This document shows, piece by piece, positions 1-6,326 of a DNA stretch of 6,326 nt. The notes beneath the pieces were generated by a model. That model saw nothing but the letters and a program-made list of their open reading frames with translations. It was not told where the DNA came from and did no database searches. The stretch is from a virus (Duplodnaviria > Heunggongvirae > Uroviricota > Caudoviricetes): the IMG/VR virus record IMGVR_UViG_2690316345_000003, positions 1-6,326 of that record; one strand, written 5' to 3'. The position numbers were made by a program, and so were the translations under genes. Position 1 is the first letter of the stretch; each line of letters begins with the position of its first letter.

Positions 1-115
1 CCTGGCACGGCTGGGACGGAAGTCGCTGTCGTTCTCAAAATCGGTGGAGCTGCATGACAAAGTCATCGGGCATTATCTGAACATAAAACACTATCAATAA
101 GTTGGAGTCATTACC
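1..115 (+). mobile_element. IS1: IS1 insertion sequence, right (3') end only; the window begins inside the element
   Basis: Positions 1-115 match the IS1 right end as I recall it (…CTGGCACGGCTGGGACGGAAGTCGCTG…AAGTTGGAGTCATTACC), ending in the terminal inverted repeat (reverse complement GGTAATGACTCCAACTTATTGATAGTG). Identification is from memory of the IS1 sequence, not a search. Confidence 0.9.
2..100 (+). CDS. insB: IS1 transposase InsB, C-terminal fragment (5' end lies outside the window)
   Basis: Frame 2 translates to [32 protein letters not shown] with stop TAA at 98-100, which matches the InsB C-terminus as I recall it. Confidence 0.8.
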
Positions 116-332
116 CACTCCCACAAACAAAATCATTCCGGGCGATGGGCGCACTCTGGTTGTTCGCTTCGACAAATTCGGCAACGTCGAATTCACTGAA
201 ACCGTTCCTGATGGCGCTCTCGTCTGTACCCTGGACACTTTCCGCCTTTATCTGGAGAAACAGGGCTGGACTCTTGTAAACCGAAGCGCAATTAAAAATA
301 TGACCGTCGAGCAGTTGCTGAGTATTAAATAG
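116..332 (+). pseudogene. 3' fragment of an unidentified protein-coding gene, apparently 5'-truncated at the IS1 junction
   Basis: An open frame runs from inside IS1 to TAG at 330-332 (…PTNKIIPGDGRTLVVRFDKFGNVEFTETVPDGALVCTLDTFRLYLEKQGWTLVNRSAIKNMTVEQLLSIK*). There is no in-frame ATG or ribosome-binding site between the IS1 boundary and residue KNM. Codon choice looks coding and the segment is more GC-rich than the AT-rich kilR/ydaE/racC genes downstream. I do not recognise the protein. Confidence 0.4.
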
Positions 333-378
333 TTTTCTGGAATTTTCTTAATACGAGAAATTTATTAAGGAGATAATT

Positions 379-600
379 ATGATTGCTCATCACTTCGGAA
401 CTGATGAAATACCACGTCAGTGTGTGACTCCTGGCGATTATGTTCTTCATGAAGGCCGGACATATATCGCCTCGGCAAACAATATTAAAAAGCGAAAACT
501 TTATATTCGTAGCCTGACTACAAAAACATGCATTACTGACTGCATGATTAAAGTCTTCCTCGGTCGTGATGGTTTACCTGTAAAGGCGGAGTCATGGTGA
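379..600 (+). CDS. kilR: KilR, Rac prophage cell-division (FtsZ) inhibitor, 73 aa
   Basis: ATG at 379 is preceded by AAGGAG at 368-373. The product [73 protein letters not shown] matches KilR of E. coli K-12 as I recall it in length and near-identical sequence. Confidence 0.85.
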
Positions 601-770
601 TGACTAAGAAAATAAAATGTGCTTACCACCTTTGCAAAAAAGACGTTGAAGAAAGCAAAGCTATTGAAAGAATGCTTCACTTCATGCACGGGACTTTATC
701 AAAAGACGAACCGAGAAAATATTGCAGTGAAGCTTGTGCCGAAAAAGACCAGATGGCACACGAACTTTAA
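600..770 (+). CDS. ydaE: YdaE-like small Cys-rich (putative zinc-binding) Rac prophage protein, 56 aa
   Basis: Not in the ORF track because it is under 60 aa. ATG at 600-602 overlaps the kilR stop (ATGGTGATGA). Translation is [56 protein letters not shown] with two cysteine pairs (C-x4-C … C-x3-C). It matches my recollection of YdaE. Confidence 0.75.
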   Translation: MTKKIKCAYHLCKKDVEESKAIERMLHFMHGTLSKDEPRKYCSEACAEKDQMAHEL

Positions 771-843
771 TTAATTGACTATTCGAAACTGAATTTATGC
801 CAGCAATGGCAGGGATTCGCTCAACCTTAATTAAGGAGAAAAA

Positions 844-1120
844 ATGATTACCAGTTATGAAGCCACTGTTGTAACTACCGATGACATTGTTCACGAGGTT
901 AATCTGGAAGGAAAGCGTATTGGCTACGTGATTAAAACAGAAAATAAAGAAACCCCCATTCACTGTGGTTGATATCGATGGTCCATCAGGCAACGTAAAA
1001 ACACTTGATGAAGGTGTCAAAAAAATGTGCCTGGTGCATATCGGAAAGAATCTGCCCGCAGAAAAAAAAGCCGAATTTCTGGCAACTCTGATTGCAATGA
1101 AATTAAAAGGTGAAATCTGA
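844..1120 (+). pseudogene. racC: racC interrupted by a +1 frameshift in a C5 homopolymer (953-957); would be 91 aa if intact
   Basis: AAGGAG at 834-839 precedes ATG at 844. Frame 1 gives MITSYEATVVTTDDIVHEVNLEGKRIGYVIKTENKETPIHCG* with stop at 970-972. The next frame is open from 932 and reads …PFTVVDIDGPSGNVKTLDEGVKKMCLVHIGKNLPAEKKAEFLATLIAMKLKGEI* with stop at 1118-1120. Removing one C from the CCCCC run restores a continuous 91-aa product matching RacC as I recall it. Confidence 0.7.
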
Positions 1121-1125
1121 AAGAA

Positions 1126-1150
1126 ATAGCCTGCGTATGGCGCAGGCTAT
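1126..1150 (+). promoter_or_regulatory. Perfect 10-bp inverted repeat (stem-loop) in the racC-recE intergenic region
   Basis: ATAGCCTGCG (1126-1135), loop TATGG, then CGCAGGCTAT (1141-1150), which is the exact reverse complement. No U-tract follows, so it is not a canonical intrinsic terminator. It lies about 70 bp upstream of the recE start. Confidence 0.5.
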
Positions 1151-1220
1151 GAACAGTGTGTATCCGGCAAGATTATTCACTGAACAAACGAATTTTAATC
1201 TGAGTTGAGGTTAAAAAACA

Positions 1221-3968
1221 ATGAGCACCGATAAACAAGTTTACCCACTGTATTACGAAGCAAAAAATGACAAAGTAAGAAAACGTCTCGGTATTAAAGG
1301 CGGTTTCTACTGGACTGAAGCGAAAAAATTATCCATTGCCATATCCCGTGGTGCTGTTGCTATTGACGATGCTGGCTACGATGAAGATGACTTTAAAAAA
1401 CCCGTTCGCGTAAATTTCCCCGTCGTGAATGACCTTCCACCGGAAGGCGTGTTTGATACTGAATTCTGCAACCGCTATGAAAAAGGCGGGGAAGATGGCA
1501 TCACCATGATGGCTATATCCTTCAATGACAACATCAACGGTGAAGATGCCACAACTGCTGGCGATGACAACGATGACCCGGACGGAACTATTCCGGATGA
1601 TGTGGAGAAAAGCGAATCCCCGGACAGCGACGATGACTGTTCTGAGTGTGAAATTCCCGTCGCCACTCTGAGCCTTACTCATCGCTTCCTTCACCTCTTC
1701 TTCTTCAGCAAGGATGAAGATGGAAAATACCGGCATCACGCCACACCAGAACAACGCAATAACGTGATCCGTATGGAGATGGACACAGAGGACAGTTACC
1801 TTCAGAGCCTGCTTACTGCTGTGCGCGCCGCACATCATGAACTGGATAAACTGACGAACTATCACCTTAGTCGCCTGGCTGAATCTGTAGGGAAAGCATT
1901 CCCCCACTCTGCAAATCATCGCATCAGCCCGGCTGAATTCGACAAGTTCATTTCCACCTGGATGAAAACTGACTACCTTGATCAGGGCCTGCTGACAAAA
2001 GAATGGCAGAACGGAAATTATGTTTCAGGAATTACCCGTACGCCTTCCGGTGCTAACGCTGGCGGCGGAAATATTACCGATCGTGGTGAAGGATTCAAAC
2101 ATGATAAGACATCACTCGCACGAGATGTAGCCACCGGCGTTCTGGCCCGTTCAATGGATGTGGATATTTATAACCTTCATCCGGCACACGCTAAACGTGT
2201 CGAGGAAATTATCGCTGAAAATAAACCGCCCTTTTCTGTTTTCCGCGACAAATTCATCACCATGCCTGGCGGGCTGGATTATTCCCGCGCCATCGTGGTT
2301 GCGTCCGTAAAAGAAGCACCAATTGGGATCGAGGTTATCCCTGCGCATGTCACTGAATATCTGAACAAGGTGCTGATTGAAACCGATCATGCCAACCCTG
2401 ATCCGGAAATCGTGGATATTGCCTGCGGTCGTTCCTCTGCCCCGATGCCGCAGCGTGTAACAGAAGAAGGAAAACACGATGGTGAAGAAAAACCGCAACC
2501 ATCTTGCGCAATGGCAGATAAACAGGCAACGGCTGAAACAGTGGAACCGGATGCAACTGAACATCATCAGGACACGCAGCCGCTGGATGCTCAGTCACAG
2601 GTAAATTCTGTTGATGCGAAATATCAGAAACTGCGGGCAGAACTCCATGAAGCCCGGAAAACCATTCCGCCCAAAAATCCTGTCGATGCCGACAAATTGC
2701 TGGCTGCCTCTCGCGGAGAATTTGTTGAAGGGATTAGCGACCCGAATGATCCGAAATGGATTAAGGGGATCCAGACCCGCGATTCTGTGTACCAGAATCA
2801 GCCAGAAACGGAACAGAACGACCAGAAAGCGGAACAGAACAGCCCAAATACGCAACAAAACGAGCCAGAAACGAAACAACCTGAACCAGTAGTGCAACAG
2901 GAACCGGAAAAGATCTGCACCGCCTGCGGCCAGAGGAGTGGCGGCAACTGCCCTGATTGTGGCGCGGTGATGGGCGACGCAACATACCAGGAAACATTCG
3001 ATGAAGAGAATCAGGTTGAAGCTAAGGAAAATGATCCGGAGGAAATGGAAGGCGCTGAACATCCGCACAATGAGAATGCTGGCAGCGATCCGCATCGCGA
3101 TTGCAGTGATGAAACTGGCGAAGTCGCAGATCCCGTAATCGTAGAAGACATAGAGCCAGGTATTTATTACGGAATTTCGAATGAGAATTACCACGTAGGT
3201 CCCGGTGTCAGTAAGTCTCAGCTCGATGACATTGCTGATACTCCGGCACTGTATTTGTGGCGTAAAAATGCCCCCGTGGACAACACAAAGACAAAAACGC
3301 TCGATTTAGGAACCGCTTTCCACTTCCGGGTACTTGAACCGGAAGAATTCAGTAACCGCTTTATCGTAGCACCTGAATTTAACCGCCGTACAAACGCCGG
3401 AAAAGAAGAAGAGAAAGCGTTTCTGATGGAATGCGCAAGCACAGGAAAAACGGTTATCACTGCGGAAGAAGGTCGGAAAATTGAACTCATGTATCAAAGC
3501 GTTATGGCTTTGCCGCTGGGGCAATGGCTTGTTGAAAGCGCCGGACACGCTGAATCATCAATTTACTGGGAAGATCCTGAAACAGGAATTTTGTGTCGGT
3601 GCCGTCCGGACAAAATTATCCCTGAATTTCACTGGATCATGGACGTGAAAACTACGGCGGATATTCAACGATTCAAAACCGCTTATTACGACTACCGCTA
3701 TCACGTTCAGGATGCATTCTACAGTGACGGTTATGAAGCACAGTTTGGAGTGCAGCCAACTTTCGTTTTTCTGGTTGCCAGCACAACTATTGAATGCGGA
3801 CGTTATCCGGTTGAAATTTTCATGATGGGCGAAGAAGCAAAACTGGCAGGTCAGCTGGAATATCACCGCAATCTGCGAACCCTGGCTGACTGCCTCAATA
3901 CCAATGAATGGCCAGCTATTAAGACGTTATCACTGCCCCGCTGGGCTAAGGAATATGCAAATGACTAA
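1221..3968 (+). CDS. recE: RecE (exonuclease VIII), 915 aa, 5'-3' dsDNA exonuclease with a C-terminal PD-(D/E)XK nuclease domain
   Basis: GAGG at 1207-1210 precedes ATG at 1221 and a single long ORF follows. From about residue 255 onward the protein closely matches E. coli RecE as I recall it (…GLLTKEW…ANAGGGN…DRGEGF…ARSMD…[12 protein letters not shown]…). The C-terminal domain carries a PD-(D/E)XK signature (RPD at 3609-3611; MDVK at 3639-3650). A C-x2-C-x7-C-x2-C motif lies at 2916-2960. The stop overlaps the recT start. Confidence 0.9.
2791..2910 (+). repeat. Imperfect short tandem repeats (CCAGAAACGGAACAGAAC-like) encoding a Q/E/N/P-rich linker within recE
   Basis: GCCAGAAACGGAACAGAAC (2801-2819), CCAGAAAGCGGAACAGAAC (2823-2840) and GCCAGAAACGAAACAAC (2864-2880) encode [38 protein letters not shown]. 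The antisense track ORF 2595..3194 is a by-product of this repetitive stretch. Confidence 0.5.
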
Positions 3969-4770
3969 GCAACCACCAATCGCAAAAGCCGATCTGCAAA
4001 AAACTCAGGGAAACCGTGCACCAGCAGCAATTAAAAATAACGACGTGATTAGTTTTATTAACCAGCCATCAATGAAAGAGCAACTGGCAGCAGCTCTTCC
4101 ACGCCATATGACGGCTGAACGTATGATCCGTATCGCCACCACAGAAATTCGTAAAGTTCCGGCGTTAGGAAACTGTGACACTATGAGTTTTGTCAGTGCA
4201 ATCGTACAGTGTTCACAGCTCGGACTTGAGCCAGGTAGCGCCCTCGGTCATGCATATTTACTGCCTTTTGGTAATAAAAACGAAAAGAGCGGTAAAAAAA
4301 ACGTTCAGCTAATCATTGGCTATCGCGGCATGATTGATCTGGCTCGCCGTTCAGGTCAAATCGCCAGCCTGTCAGCCCGTGTTGTCCGTGAAGGTGACGA
4401 ATTTAATTTCGAATTTGGCCTTGATGAAAAGTTAATACACCGCCCAGGAGAAAACGAAGATGCCCCGGTTACCCACGTCTATGCTGTCGCAAGACTGAAA
4501 GACGGAGGTACTCAGTTTGAAGTTATGACGCGCAAACAGATTGAGCTGGTGCGCAGCCAGAGTAAGGCTGGTAATAACGGGCCATGGGTAACTCACTGGG
4601 AAGAAATGGCAAAAAAAACGGCTATTCGTCGCCTGTTTAAATACCTGCCTGTCTCAATTGAAATCCAGCGTGCAGTATCAATGGATGAAAAGGAACCACT
4701 GACAATCGATCCGGCAGACTCCTCTGTATTAACCGGGGAATACAGTGTGATCGATAATTCAGAAGAATAA
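3961..4770 (+). CDS. recT: RecT single-strand annealing protein (RecT/Redβ family), 269 aa
   Basis: ATG at 3961 lies 8 nt after an AGGA core (3949-3952). The track's upstream extension from 3904 is rejected because ATG 3955 is only 2 nt from that core. The product [36 protein letters not shown]… matches E. coli RecT as I recall it. The start overlaps the recE stop in ATGACTAA. Confidence 0.9.
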
Positions 4771-4777
4771 TTCAGCC

Positions 4778-4798
4778 TGGCGGTGTAATGCACCGCCA
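4778..4798 (+). terminator. GC-rich 8-bp stem-loop just downstream of recT; possible weak terminator or RNA-stabilising hairpin
   Basis: TGGCGGTG (4778-4785), loop TAATG, then CACCGCCA (4791-4798), a perfect inverted repeat. A TTTTT run follows only after a 12-nt spacer (about 4811-4815), so the terminator assignment is weak. Confidence 0.35.
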
Positions 4799-4826
4799 AC
4801 GCGAGACAGTTTTTATGACAAAAATT

Positions 4827-5021
4827 ATGAGATATGACGATGTTAAACCATGTCCGTTTTGTGGTTGTCCATCTGTTACGGTGAAAGCAATTTCAGGATA
4901 TTACCGGGCAAAATGCAACGGATGCGAATCCCGAACTGGCTATGGTGGAAGTGAAAAAGAAGCACTCGAAAGATGGAATAAACGAACTACTGGAAATAAT
5001 AATGGAGGTGTTCATGTATAA
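4827..5021 (+). CDS. ralR: RalR/Lar restriction-alleviation protein, 64 aa, Cys-rich zinc-finger-like
   Basis: Translation from ATG 4827 is MRYDDVKPCPFCGCPSVTVKAISGYYRAKCNGCESRTGYGGSEKEALERWNKRTTGNNNGGVHV*, which matches Rac RalR (Lar) as I recall it, with a C-x2-C … C-x2-C motif. No strong Shine-Dalgarno sequence is present; in-frame ATGs at 4788 and 4815 are possible but less consistent with the known protein. Confidence 0.8.
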   Translation: MRYDDVKPCPFCGCPSVTVKAISGYYRAKCNGCESRTGYGGSEKEALERWNKRTTGNNNGGVHV

Positions 5022-5202
5022 AATAACTGCCACTATTGAAAAAGAAGGTGGCACTCCTACTAACTGGACAAGATATTCAAAATCTAAATTAACGAAATCA
5101 GAATGCGAAAAAATGCTCTCAGGGAAAAAAGAAGCAGGCGTGTCCAGAGAGCAGAAAGTAAAGCTGATAAATTTTAATTGCGAGAAACTTCTGTCCTCGT
5201 GA
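5014..5202 (+). CDS. ydaC: YdaC-like small Rac prophage protein of unknown function, 62 aa
   Basis: GGAGG at about 5003-5007 lies 6 nt before ATG 5014. Translation is MYKITATIEKEGGTPTNWTRYSKSKLTKSECEKMLSGKKEAGVSREQKVKLINFNCEKLLSS*. The start overlaps the ralR stop (ATGTATAA). The track's start at 4942 is rejected in favour of the ribosome-binding-site-supported ATG. Confidence 0.65.
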   Translation: MYKITATIEKEGGTPTNWTRYSKSKLTKSECEKMLSGKKEAGVSREQKVKLINFNCEKLLSS

Positions 5203-5257
5203 GTTGCATTATATACAAATTAGAACTTCATAGCTGATTATTAAAAATCAACCACAC

Positions 5258-5286
5258 CCGCCAGTATTCTGTATATTTACTGGCGG
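5258..5286 (+). promoter_or_regulatory. Perfect 9-bp inverted repeat with an 11-nt AT-rich loop upstream of xis; candidate operator or RNA structure
   Basis: CCGCCAGTA (5258-5266), loop TTCTGTATATT, then TACTGGCGG (5278-5286), the exact reverse complement. It sits in the AT-rich ydaC-xis gap directly upstream of the xis ribosome-binding site (AAGAGG at about 5296-5301). No U-tract follows. Confidence 0.45.
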
Positions 5287-5302
5287 TCATATCGTAAGAG
5301 GT

Positions 5303-5590
5303 ATGGCAATGAATCTTGTGACACTCAAAACGTGGGGAAAACTCAGATATCCGGATAACCCACCATCAATATCAACGCTGAGACGATGGGCAAGGAATGG
5401 AAACATTTATCCTGCACCTGAACTACACGGGAGGAGTTACAGGGTGGTTCCGGAAGCTTTCTATATCAACCCCAATAAGGTTGATACCGATATAACACAC
5501 CATCAGCCTAATGGGCGACAAGGGAGAGACAGTCCGTTACTGGAGAAGTTAAAACATGCAGCGGAAAAAATACGATCCCAATTTGCCTAA
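5303..5590 (+). CDS. xisR: Excisionase (Xis family), Rac XisR-like, 95 aa
   Basis: The product MAMNLVTLKTWGKLRYPDNPPSISTLRRWARNGNIYPAPELHGRSYRVVPEAFYINPN… has the lambda Xis pattern (…TLxxW…S.xT.RRW.R…P.P…GR.Y…). It sits immediately upstream of the integrase and overlaps it by 35 nt, as in lambda xis-int. An alternative start at ATG 5309 is possible. Confidence 0.7.
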   Translation: MAMNLVTLKTWGKLRYPDNPPSISTLRRWARNGNIYPAPELHGRSYRVVPEAFYINPNKVDTDITHHQPNGRQGRDSPLLEKLKHAAEKIRSQFA

Positions 5591-6200
5591 AAACTTAACA
5601 TATCGAAGGAGGGACAAAGCATATTACTGGCGCAACCCTCTGACGAAAGAAGAATTTACACTAGGTAAAATTTCAAGAAGAGATGCAATCGCGCAGGCAA
5701 TTGAAGCAAATCACTATATATACAAAAACTACTCTACTGCTGCCTTAATTGAAAAACTTAAAGGGTTCGACTCATTTACTATGGCAGACTGGATTGAACG
5801 TTACAAAACGATTCTTATAAGGAGAAAAGTGTCCAGAAATACTTATAAAATTCGGGTAAATCAACTGGAGACAATAAAAGAAAAATTGGGAGAGATTTTA
5901 CTGACAGAAATAACCACTCGCCATATTGCCGAGTTTCTTGATTTGTGGATTGAAGGAGGGAAAAACACAATGGCAGGATCAATGCGTTCTGTGTTGTCTG
6001 ATATGTTTCGTGAGGCCATTGTTGAAGGACGTATATCTCAAAATCCAGTAACGCCAACAAGAGCACCGAAAATAGTAGTTACAAGAGAACGACTGAAACT
6101 AAAGACATACAACTGCATCAGGGAGGCAGCAGATCAACTTCCGGCATGGTTCCCATTAGCTATGGATTTAGCCCTTGTAACAGGACAACGTCGCGAAGAC
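5556..6200 (+). pseudogene. intR: Lambda-family tyrosine integrase, N-terminal 215 codons only, truncated by IS1 insertion
   Basis: GGAG at 5543-5546 precedes ATG 5556. The product aligns with the lambda Int N-terminal and core-binding domains (…LSDMFREAIVEGRISQNPVTPTRAPK…AWFPLAMDLALVTGQR versus lambda …LSDAFREAIAEGHITTNHVAATRAAK…CWLRLAMELAVVTGQR). The frame then runs straight into IS1 at 6201 and stops at 6227 after eight IS1-encoded residues. The catalytic-domain residues downstream of that Arg, including the Tyr nucleophile, are absent from the window. Confidence 0.85.
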
Positions 6201-6326
6201 GGTGATGCTGCCAACTTACTGATTTAGTGTATGATGGTGTTTTTGAGGTGCTCCAGTGGCTTCTGTTTCTATCAGCTGTCCCTCCTGTTCAGCTACTGAC
6301 GGGGTGGTGCGTAACGGCAAAAGCAC
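6201..6326 (+). mobile_element. IS1: IS1 insertion sequence, left (5') end only; the element continues beyond the window
   Basis: GGTGATGCTGCCAACTTACTGATTTAGTGTATGATGGTGTTTTTGAGGTGCTCCAGTGGCTTCTG… is the IS1 left terminal inverted repeat and the start of insA as I recall them. It is in the same orientation as the copy at 1-115. Confidence 0.9.
6256..6326 (+). CDS. insA: IS1 InsA, N-terminal fragment (3' end lies outside the window)
   Basis: From the GTG start at 6256 the frame reads (M)[23 protein letters not shown]…, the known InsA N-terminus with its C-x2-C motif. Confidence 0.8.
   Translation, partial: [23 protein letters not shown]

Follow-up and report, generated by a model that had tools for sequence, protein, structure and literature searches.

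A Rac-like prophage arm with kilR and recET between two IS1 ends on an Escherichia coli contig, probably uncoupled from its upstream promoters

Results

The contig and its two IS1 ends

The stretch of DNA analysed here, 6326 bp and hereafter called the window, is one complete draft contig, CYCA01000098.1 of assembly GCA_001285045.1, whose proteins carry the NCBI label Escherichia coli (e.g. CTW40669.1). It holds the kilR-recET arm of a Rac-like prophage, and it begins and ends within copies of the insertion sequence (IS) IS1. The subject of this analysis is kilR, the IS1 end and gene fragment that lie upstream of it, and the likely consequences of this arrangement for transcription of the kilR-recET operon.

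Nucleotides 1-115 are the right end of an IS1 copy on the + strand. They comprise the C-terminus of insB (2-97), its TAA stop codon (98-100) and the terminal inverted repeat, which finishes with ...GTTGGAGTCATTACC at position 115. The translation of 2-97 matched positions 100-131 of the 131-position Pfam profile DDE_Tnp_IS1 (E 6.8e-14), and in E. coli genomes window 1-115 matched IS1 copies, annotated as IS1 transposase, by the tens of thousands. Only these last 115 bp of the left IS1 are on the contig, which starts inside the element, and insB reads toward kilR. At the far side, 6201-6326 (+ strand) correspond to the IS1 left end, with the left inverted repeat (IRL) and the start of insA, in the same orientation as 1-115; the contig ends inside this element. 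The segment was identical at 126 of 126 positions to what we take to be the IS1 left-end sequence, and thousands of E. coli records matched it at features annotated as IS1 transposase. A search with both IS1 stretches located IS1 at a median of ~10 places per E. coli genome. The contig starts and stops at IS1 because a short-read assembler halts at a multi-copy repeat. What can be seen of IS1 is therefore the inner 115 bp and 126 bp, any outer target duplications lying outside the contig.

Between the two IS1 ends, which have the same (direct) orientation, lie 6085 bp. Both joins fall exactly at the IS1 terminal nucleotides, and homology to uninterrupted prophages spans 115/116 to 6200. A prophage arm bracketed in this way by direct IS1 copies has a layout resembling that of a composite transposon.

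Downstream of the left IS1, the + strand carries a gene fragment (116-332), a 46-nt spacer (333-378) with the Shine-Dalgarno (SD) sequence AAGGAG at 367-372, and an intact kilR (379-600; ATG at 379; 73 aa). The first-pass annotation of this DNA had described IS1 abutting a truncated gene of 217 bp upstream of an intact kilR. This description is borne out, as the IS1 end lies 263 bp upstream of kilR and the start of prophage homology at 115/116 fixes the fragment at 116-332. The annotation was likewise right about the kilR open reading frame (ORF) and its ribosome-binding site, but the AAGGAG motif, which it had put at 368-373, is displaced by one position.

The kilR DNA was 100% identical to the annotated kilR of WP_000560228.1. 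The encoded protein shares 70 of 73 residues (96%) with K-12 KilR, belongs to the precomputed family PF27398 KilR, and occurs in exactly this form on at least 1000 contigs. The K-12 protein, known as the FtsZ/MreB inhibitor of Rac, blocks cell division when expressed (PMC12482147, PMC5793797). The KilR of the window, which differs by three substitutions, may act likewise.

To place the window, we compared it with Rac-like prophages of Shiga toxin-producing E. coli (STEC), namely those of CP077465 (O111:H8; locus L002) and CP031916 (O45:H2; locus L014). Over 6086 bp, window 115-6200 aligned with both without gaps and with at most one mismatch. These relatives lack IS1 here, their rha and int genes are whole, and the Rac-like prophage lies at yebY.

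The truncated gene upstream of kilR

The fragment next to IS1 had been taken as a gene of unknown identity, which it is not: nucleotides 116-332 (+ strand) are 100% identical to the end of the Rha family phage regulatory protein gene for WP_000935592.1 (282 aa). The fragment, 71 codons plus stop, is the 3' end of a Rha/AnrP-type phage regulator gene. IS1 cuts rha at codon 211 of 282. In intact Rha the Phage_pRha domain occupies aa 119-203, and the cut has removed it completely. Consistent with this, the remnant (117-329) had no Pfam domain match. A possible Rho-utilisation signal in the untranslated remnant was considered and dropped, as the C/G ratio within 101-300 is only 1.2-1.4 and not distinctive.

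Promoters and terminators between IS1 and kilR

In the K-12 Rac prophage, sbcA mutations activate recET (PMC9504249), and perturbing RacR control raises kilR, ydaE, racC, ydaF and ydaG 40- to 70-fold (PMC11014345). Rho/NusG additionally silence kilR and the left operon (PMC5793797; PMC12482147). The first-pass annotation had started from this same picture of repressor silencing and sbcA activation, in line with published work (PMC9504249, PMC11014345, PMC5793797), and had proposed a hybrid promoter at the IS1 end as one way in which the operon might be driven.

The IS1 terminal repeat does contain an outward -35-like hexamer, TTGGAG, at 102-107 on the + strand, 8 bp from the IS1 end. According to the passage of PMC9330008 that cites Prentki 1986, IS1 ends can form hybrid promoters. 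Such an outward -35 activates the neighbouring gene only with a correctly spaced -10, as in the activation of afaA in ST131 (PMC8764528). At spacers of 14-19 bp, the hexamers downstream of TTGGAG share only two or three of six positions with TATAAT; those at spacers 16-18 are CAAACA, AAACAA and AACAAA (2-3/6), and the only 4/6 match, CAAAAT, stands at spacer 20. A scan for sigma-70-like promoters found none in window 1-347, even at relaxed thresholds. Three weak promoter-like candidates at 348-383 are native sequence, and their number equals the expectation from shuffled sequence (3 observed, 3.1 expected). Because their -10 elements run into the kilR SD and ATG, no translatable kilR mRNA would come from them. 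Sequence 1-383 showed no sbcA-type change that would create or unmask a promoter upstream of recET.

These scans do not support an IS1 hybrid promoter for kilR, as the predicted -35 has no usable -10. The window shares with the IS1 hybrid promoter of afaA the outward -35-like terminal repeat and the right orientation, but the -10 is missing. It thus matches the osmB/ugd-type outcome of PMC8764528, in which there is no activation, and not the afaA type.

Transcription could also enter from IS1 itself. No intrinsic terminator was predicted on the + strand in window 1-378. IS1 is a polar element whose promoter is weak and repressed by InsA. Hubner et al. are said to have described a terminator within IS1 in 1987. 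Read-through from the IS1 promoter into kilR is possible and would be weak.

We weighed the idea that the window represents a natural counterpart of sbcA activation, with IS1 read-through or a hybrid promoter at the IS1 right end driving kilR-recET constitutively. The transposase gene is directed into kilR with no predicted terminator in between, and all ORFs of the operon are intact except racC. IS1 ends are also known to carry an outward -35 and to give rise to hybrid promoters (PMC8764528; Prentki 1986, in the passage of PMC9330008 that cites it). These features are outweighed by the lack of a -10 at a functional distance or of any other promoter-like site in 1-347, by the properties of IS1 just described (weak, autorepressed promoter; terminator), and by the activity of KilR: if made constitutively, KilR would inhibit division (PMC12482147), and strong expression should thus be selected against. 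Constitutive activation of this kind appears improbable.

IS1 junctions and their reciprocal halves

At the right junction, IS1 truncates the integrase gene (5556-6200, + strand) after codon 215 of 358, by comparison with the intact 358-aa integrase of CP077465. The ORF continues into IS1 up to a stop codon at 6225-6227, giving an int'::IS1 fusion (5556-6227) of 223 aa. Since its integrase is truncated by the second IS1, the prophage arm is unable to excise with its own integrase. The fusion is known from only three contigs, none larger than 10 kb (two places shown), and its database entry, CTW40669.1, is listed on two contigs.

Both junctions are rare: 5426 complete E. coli genomes contained neither the left nor the right one, and the plasmids of PLSDB lacked the left one (window 60-400). 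The exact 31-mer of the left junction had 0 matches in the GTDB species representatives, a collection with one genome per species and hence uninformative on this point. The cargo itself (116-6200) was covered to at least 80%, at ~95% identity, in one plasmid record, a 1.41-Mb record filed as a plasmid; the other plasmid matches were partial, so this search gave no plasmid copy nearly identical to the cargo.

An independent assembly of run ERR137800 reproduced the right junction, in a Logan contig covering 2992-6228. Because of this, and because the joins are at the exact IS1 termini, both junctions are real transposition products and not assembly chimeras. A chimera in which an IS1 read-end was joined to prophage DNA could best be argued for the left junction, which a single assembly supports and which the Logan contig does not reach. 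A join at the terminal nucleotides of IS1, seen on both sides, is the signature of transposition, and together with the reproduced right junction it makes an artefact extremely improbable.

A simple IS1 insertion leaves a second, reciprocal junction. At the left it predicts a fusion of the Rha N-terminus to the IS1 IRL, and at the right an ORF for the C-terminal fragment of the integrase. We generated 18 versions of these predicted proteins, assuming target duplications of 7-10 bp with the annotated start codon, and extra start codons for 8 and 9 bp only. In an exact look-up in a 15-billion-protein collection, in which the int'::IS1 fusion was present, all 18 were absent. A Rha homology search for truncated Rha::IS1 fusions was uninformative: no such fusion occurred among the 120 of 2867 matches listed, all of which were 256-284 aa long (expected size of the fusion, ~215-222 aa). 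The failed look-ups lean towards an IS1-mediated deletion or rearrangement as the somewhat more likely origin of the junctions.

The competing account is that two independent, simple IS1 insertions, in rha and in int, struck an otherwise complete prophage. The repressor-operator region, ydaF, the isrK promoter with isrK and C4 (see below) and the 5' half of rha would then lie just past the left IS1, and the operon would be under normal immunity control with an added IS1 polarity block. A contig with IS1 at its ends is the expected outcome of short-read assembly, both junctions are precisely at IS1 termini, E. coli genomes typically hold IS1 at about ten places, and DNA virtually identical to that of intact prophages implies recent events. 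The missing Rha::IS1 and int C-terminal ORFs, set beside the presence of int'::IS1 in the same collection, speak against it. They are a weak negative, as the allele, the start codon and the duplication length were guessed. We regard two simple insertions as a possible but less likely history.

The bracketing of the cargo by IS1 also recalls composite transposons of the Tn9 type, with which the window shares IS1 ends in direct orientation around a 6-kb cargo. A unit of this sort, either a Tn9-like transposon or an IS1-bounded amplifiable or circular unit, would carry kilR-recET-ralR and would have moved from the prophage. IS1 composite transposons and excised circles are known (Tn9; Turlan and Chandler 1995, in the passage of PMC9330008 that cites it), and, besides the orientation of the ends around 6085 bp, the failure to find the reciprocal junction ORFs fits such a unit. 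By contrast, direct orientation arises by chance in 50% of cases with two independent insertions, and the structure is confined to two or three contigs from very few samples. There was no sign of mobility or of a second genomic context: the structure is absent from PLSDB plasmids and from the 5426 complete E. coli genomes, and the plasmid search with the cargo does not support a plasmid-borne transposon. We consider a composite unit very improbable. Little credence can likewise be given to the wider proposal that the 6.1-kb kilR-recET-ralR/RalA-xis-int' block is a Tn9-like, IS1-bounded mobile or amplifiable unit, or that IS1 read-through makes it a natural sbcA-like constitutive RecET module in wild E. 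coli.

The kilR upstream region in uninterrupted prophages

In the intact relatives, the kilR strand carries, in order, a RacR-like helix-turn-helix repressor gene, a strong terminator-like hairpin, a 44-aa ORF, ydaF, rha and kilR. An operon resembling ydaS/ydaT is divergent from the repressor gene. In CP077465 (L002 coordinates are used for this locus), two RNA genes underlie the first ~98 codons of the rha ORF as annotated: the small RNA (sRNA) IsrK at 8315-8391 (Rfam RF01394, 68.6 bits) and a C4 antisense RNA at 8416-8503 (RF01695, 78.1 bits), both on the kilR strand. A strong sigma-70-like site, which we call PisrK, is found at 8280-8308 on this strand (10/12 matches, TTGAAA-17-TATAGT). 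It ends 7 nt before IsrK and is ~950 bp upstream of kilR. The IsrK terminator hairpin lies at 8369-8386. No terminator-like site was found on the + strand of L002 between the position that corresponds to the IS1 cut (8895) and kilR, and none after a weak hairpin at 8698-8713. Transcripts from PisrK may plausibly continue into kilR in intact prophages of this lineage. In the window, an Rfam scan detected only RalA (see below), and neither IsrK nor C4 RNA.

The c4-icd-ant immunity module of phage P1 is related to the isrK-orf45-anrP arrangement. The latter is best compared with the E. coli locus in Salmonella Gifsy-1, where PisrK drives the downstream, antirepressor-like anrP by partial read-through of the IsrK terminator (PMC4825925). 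The intact relatives share with Gifsy-1 the order promoter, IsrK with terminator, C4-like RNA and Rha/antirepressor-like ORF, whereas the window keeps only the last 71 rha codons and has no isrK or C4. Having the isrK-C4-rha module immediately before kilR characterises this E. coli lineage, in which read-through may extend into kilR.

The overlap of rha with the two RNA genes also bears on the annotation of Rha. Pfam Phage_ASH (PF10554) matches aa 14-108 of the annotated 282-aa ORF (L002 8264-8560 region), and these residues are the translated RNA region; a shorter ORF from M99 retains the pRha domain. It may be that the long Rha ORF represents an sRNA locus annotated across its read-through, as does, possibly, part of the Ash family signal; orf45-anrP offers a comparison (PMC4825925). 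A tRNA had been considered as the source of the odd N-terminal 98 aa; none was found, the region being IsrK plus C4 RNA.

The upstream context of kilR is a variable mosaic slot. In some relatives, the Rac-like prophages L007 and L008, rha is absent altogether. K-12 Rac, L007 and L008 align with the window only from position 369, where the mosaic breaks sharply 10 nt ahead of the kilR ATG. Because the alignments begin only there, the point of module exchange lies inside the kilR ribosome-binding region. K-12 Rac has sieB on the opposite strand where the lineage of the window has isrK-C4-rha. In CP031916, an identical rha-kilR-recET-int arm lies beside yebY (L014 1-5217), with an nleC pseudogene, uspF, ompN and nifJ in place of ydaF/racR. 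Two prophages appear to have been rearranged with each other here, which likewise parts the operon from its repressor but does not involve IS1.

Remaining genes of the prophage arm

From kilR to int, the window has the same gene order as the left operon of K-12 Rac (kilR-ydaE-racC-recE-recT-ralR-rcbA-xisR-intR). The start of ydaE (600-770, + strand; 56 aa) overlaps the kilR stop codon; the gene is annotated as YdaE family in identical DNA and belongs to the precomputed family PF27493 YdaE. A racC homologue (844-1120, + strand) is frameshifted into two ORFs, 844-972 and 965-1120. The frameshift also occurs in the intact STEC relatives, which align without gaps, and is annotated as 'frameshifted' in CP031916. 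As it is found in relatives too, it is older than the IS1 events.

The recE gene (exonuclease VIII; 1221-3968, + strand) is intact and encodes 915 aa, and the exact protein was found in 172 blocks of the collection. Its C-terminal ~640 aa, the nuclease part, are near-identical to K-12 RecE, whereas the N-terminal part is divergent. RecE of K-12 has 866 aa; residues ~48-270, encoded in the 5' third of recE (window 1221-2050), align with it weakly, and an extra Q/E/N-rich insertion of 14 aa is present near residue 530. Intact recT (3961-4770, + strand; 269 aa; Pfam RecT, E 7.4e-57) follows. The only difference from CP077465 and most of the other loci retrieved, over the 6086 shared bases, is at position 4045, where the window has G and they have A. 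This changes RecT codon 29 from ATG (Met) in those relatives to GTG (Val) in the window; K-12 RecT presumably also has Val at the corresponding position.

Downstream of recT lie ralR (lar; 4827-5021, + strand; 64 aa; Pfam Lar_restr_allev, E 2.3e-14) and a DUF1187 gene (5014-5202, + strand; Pfam DUF1187, E 5.8e-38) in the position of rcbA/ydaC in K-12 Rac. Antisense to the latter is the gene for the RalA antitoxin sRNA (5020-5198, - strand; Rfam RF02694, 219 bits; gathering score, 170). The remnant thus keeps a RalR/RalA toxin-antitoxin pair, with a full-length RalA gene beside an intact ralR. The excisionase gene (5309-5590, + strand; Pfam Exc, E 6.2e-14) precedes the truncated integrase.

Overall, the likeness to K-12 Rac lies in KilR, the nuclease part of RecE, RecT, RalR and the RalA sRNA. 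The window differs from it in the frameshifted racC and in the length and N-terminal part of RecE, and its immunity region is off the contig. The integrase and attachment site also differ, with the yebY side used in the lineage of the window and ttcA in K-12 Rac.

Discussion

The window is probably best understood as the left arm of a common Rac-like E. coli prophage with IS1 at both ends, in which kilR-recET has been uncoupled from its upstream promoters, has acquired no new promoter and is most likely silent or transcribed by trace read-through. The left IS1, at rha codon 211, would part the operon from every upstream promoter candidate, that is, PisrK and the repressor-proximal early promoter. 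This uncoupling may have come about by a simple polar insertion or, somewhat more likely because the look-ups of reciprocal junction ORFs failed, by an IS1-mediated deletion or rearrangement. As IS1 appears to offer no substitute promoter, we infer an operon that would be promoterless, and silent or expressed at trace level through the weak, InsA-repressed promoter of IS1. A promoterless operon with no or only trace transcription is the best-supported reading whether or not the remainder of the prophage survives beyond IS1.

Several points weigh against this reading. Consensus scans overlook weak, activator-dependent or non-sigma-70 promoters. IS1 transcription toward kilR, with no terminator predicted in 1-378, makes some read-through possible. 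The reciprocal look-ups, which depend on a guessed allele, target-duplication length and start codon, are no proof of a deletion. Finally, KilR is toxic when expressed, yet the kilR ORF is intact. The intact ORF is uninformative on decay, because a single substitution in 6 kb implies too little time since the event.

The first-pass annotation had proposed that IS1 replaced the normal upstream context of kilR. The loss of that context is evident on the contig. Its replacement cannot be concluded because the contig ends within IS1, a collapsed repeat: a simple 768-bp insertion with the prophage continuing beyond it stays compatible with the sequence. More generally, when a window has the same IS at its start and its end, it is usually an entire short-read contig, and from such a contig an upstream replacement is not to be inferred.

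The window itself records an ordinary, strain-specific IS1 event and a case of prophage decay, seen in one or two sequenced isolates; IS insertions into cryptic prophages, and remnants of these bounded by IS copies, are routine in E. coli. The most useful by-product of the analysis concerns the intact prophages. In this lineage, the rha slot ahead of kilR holds an IsrK/C4-Rha module with its own promoter in place of the sieB region of K-12. Where the module is intact, as in many STEC strains, it could open a second way of transcribing kilR-recET, one independent of RacR; in STEC Rac-like prophages, PisrK, the oxidative-stress-inducible isrK promoter, might provide that transcription.

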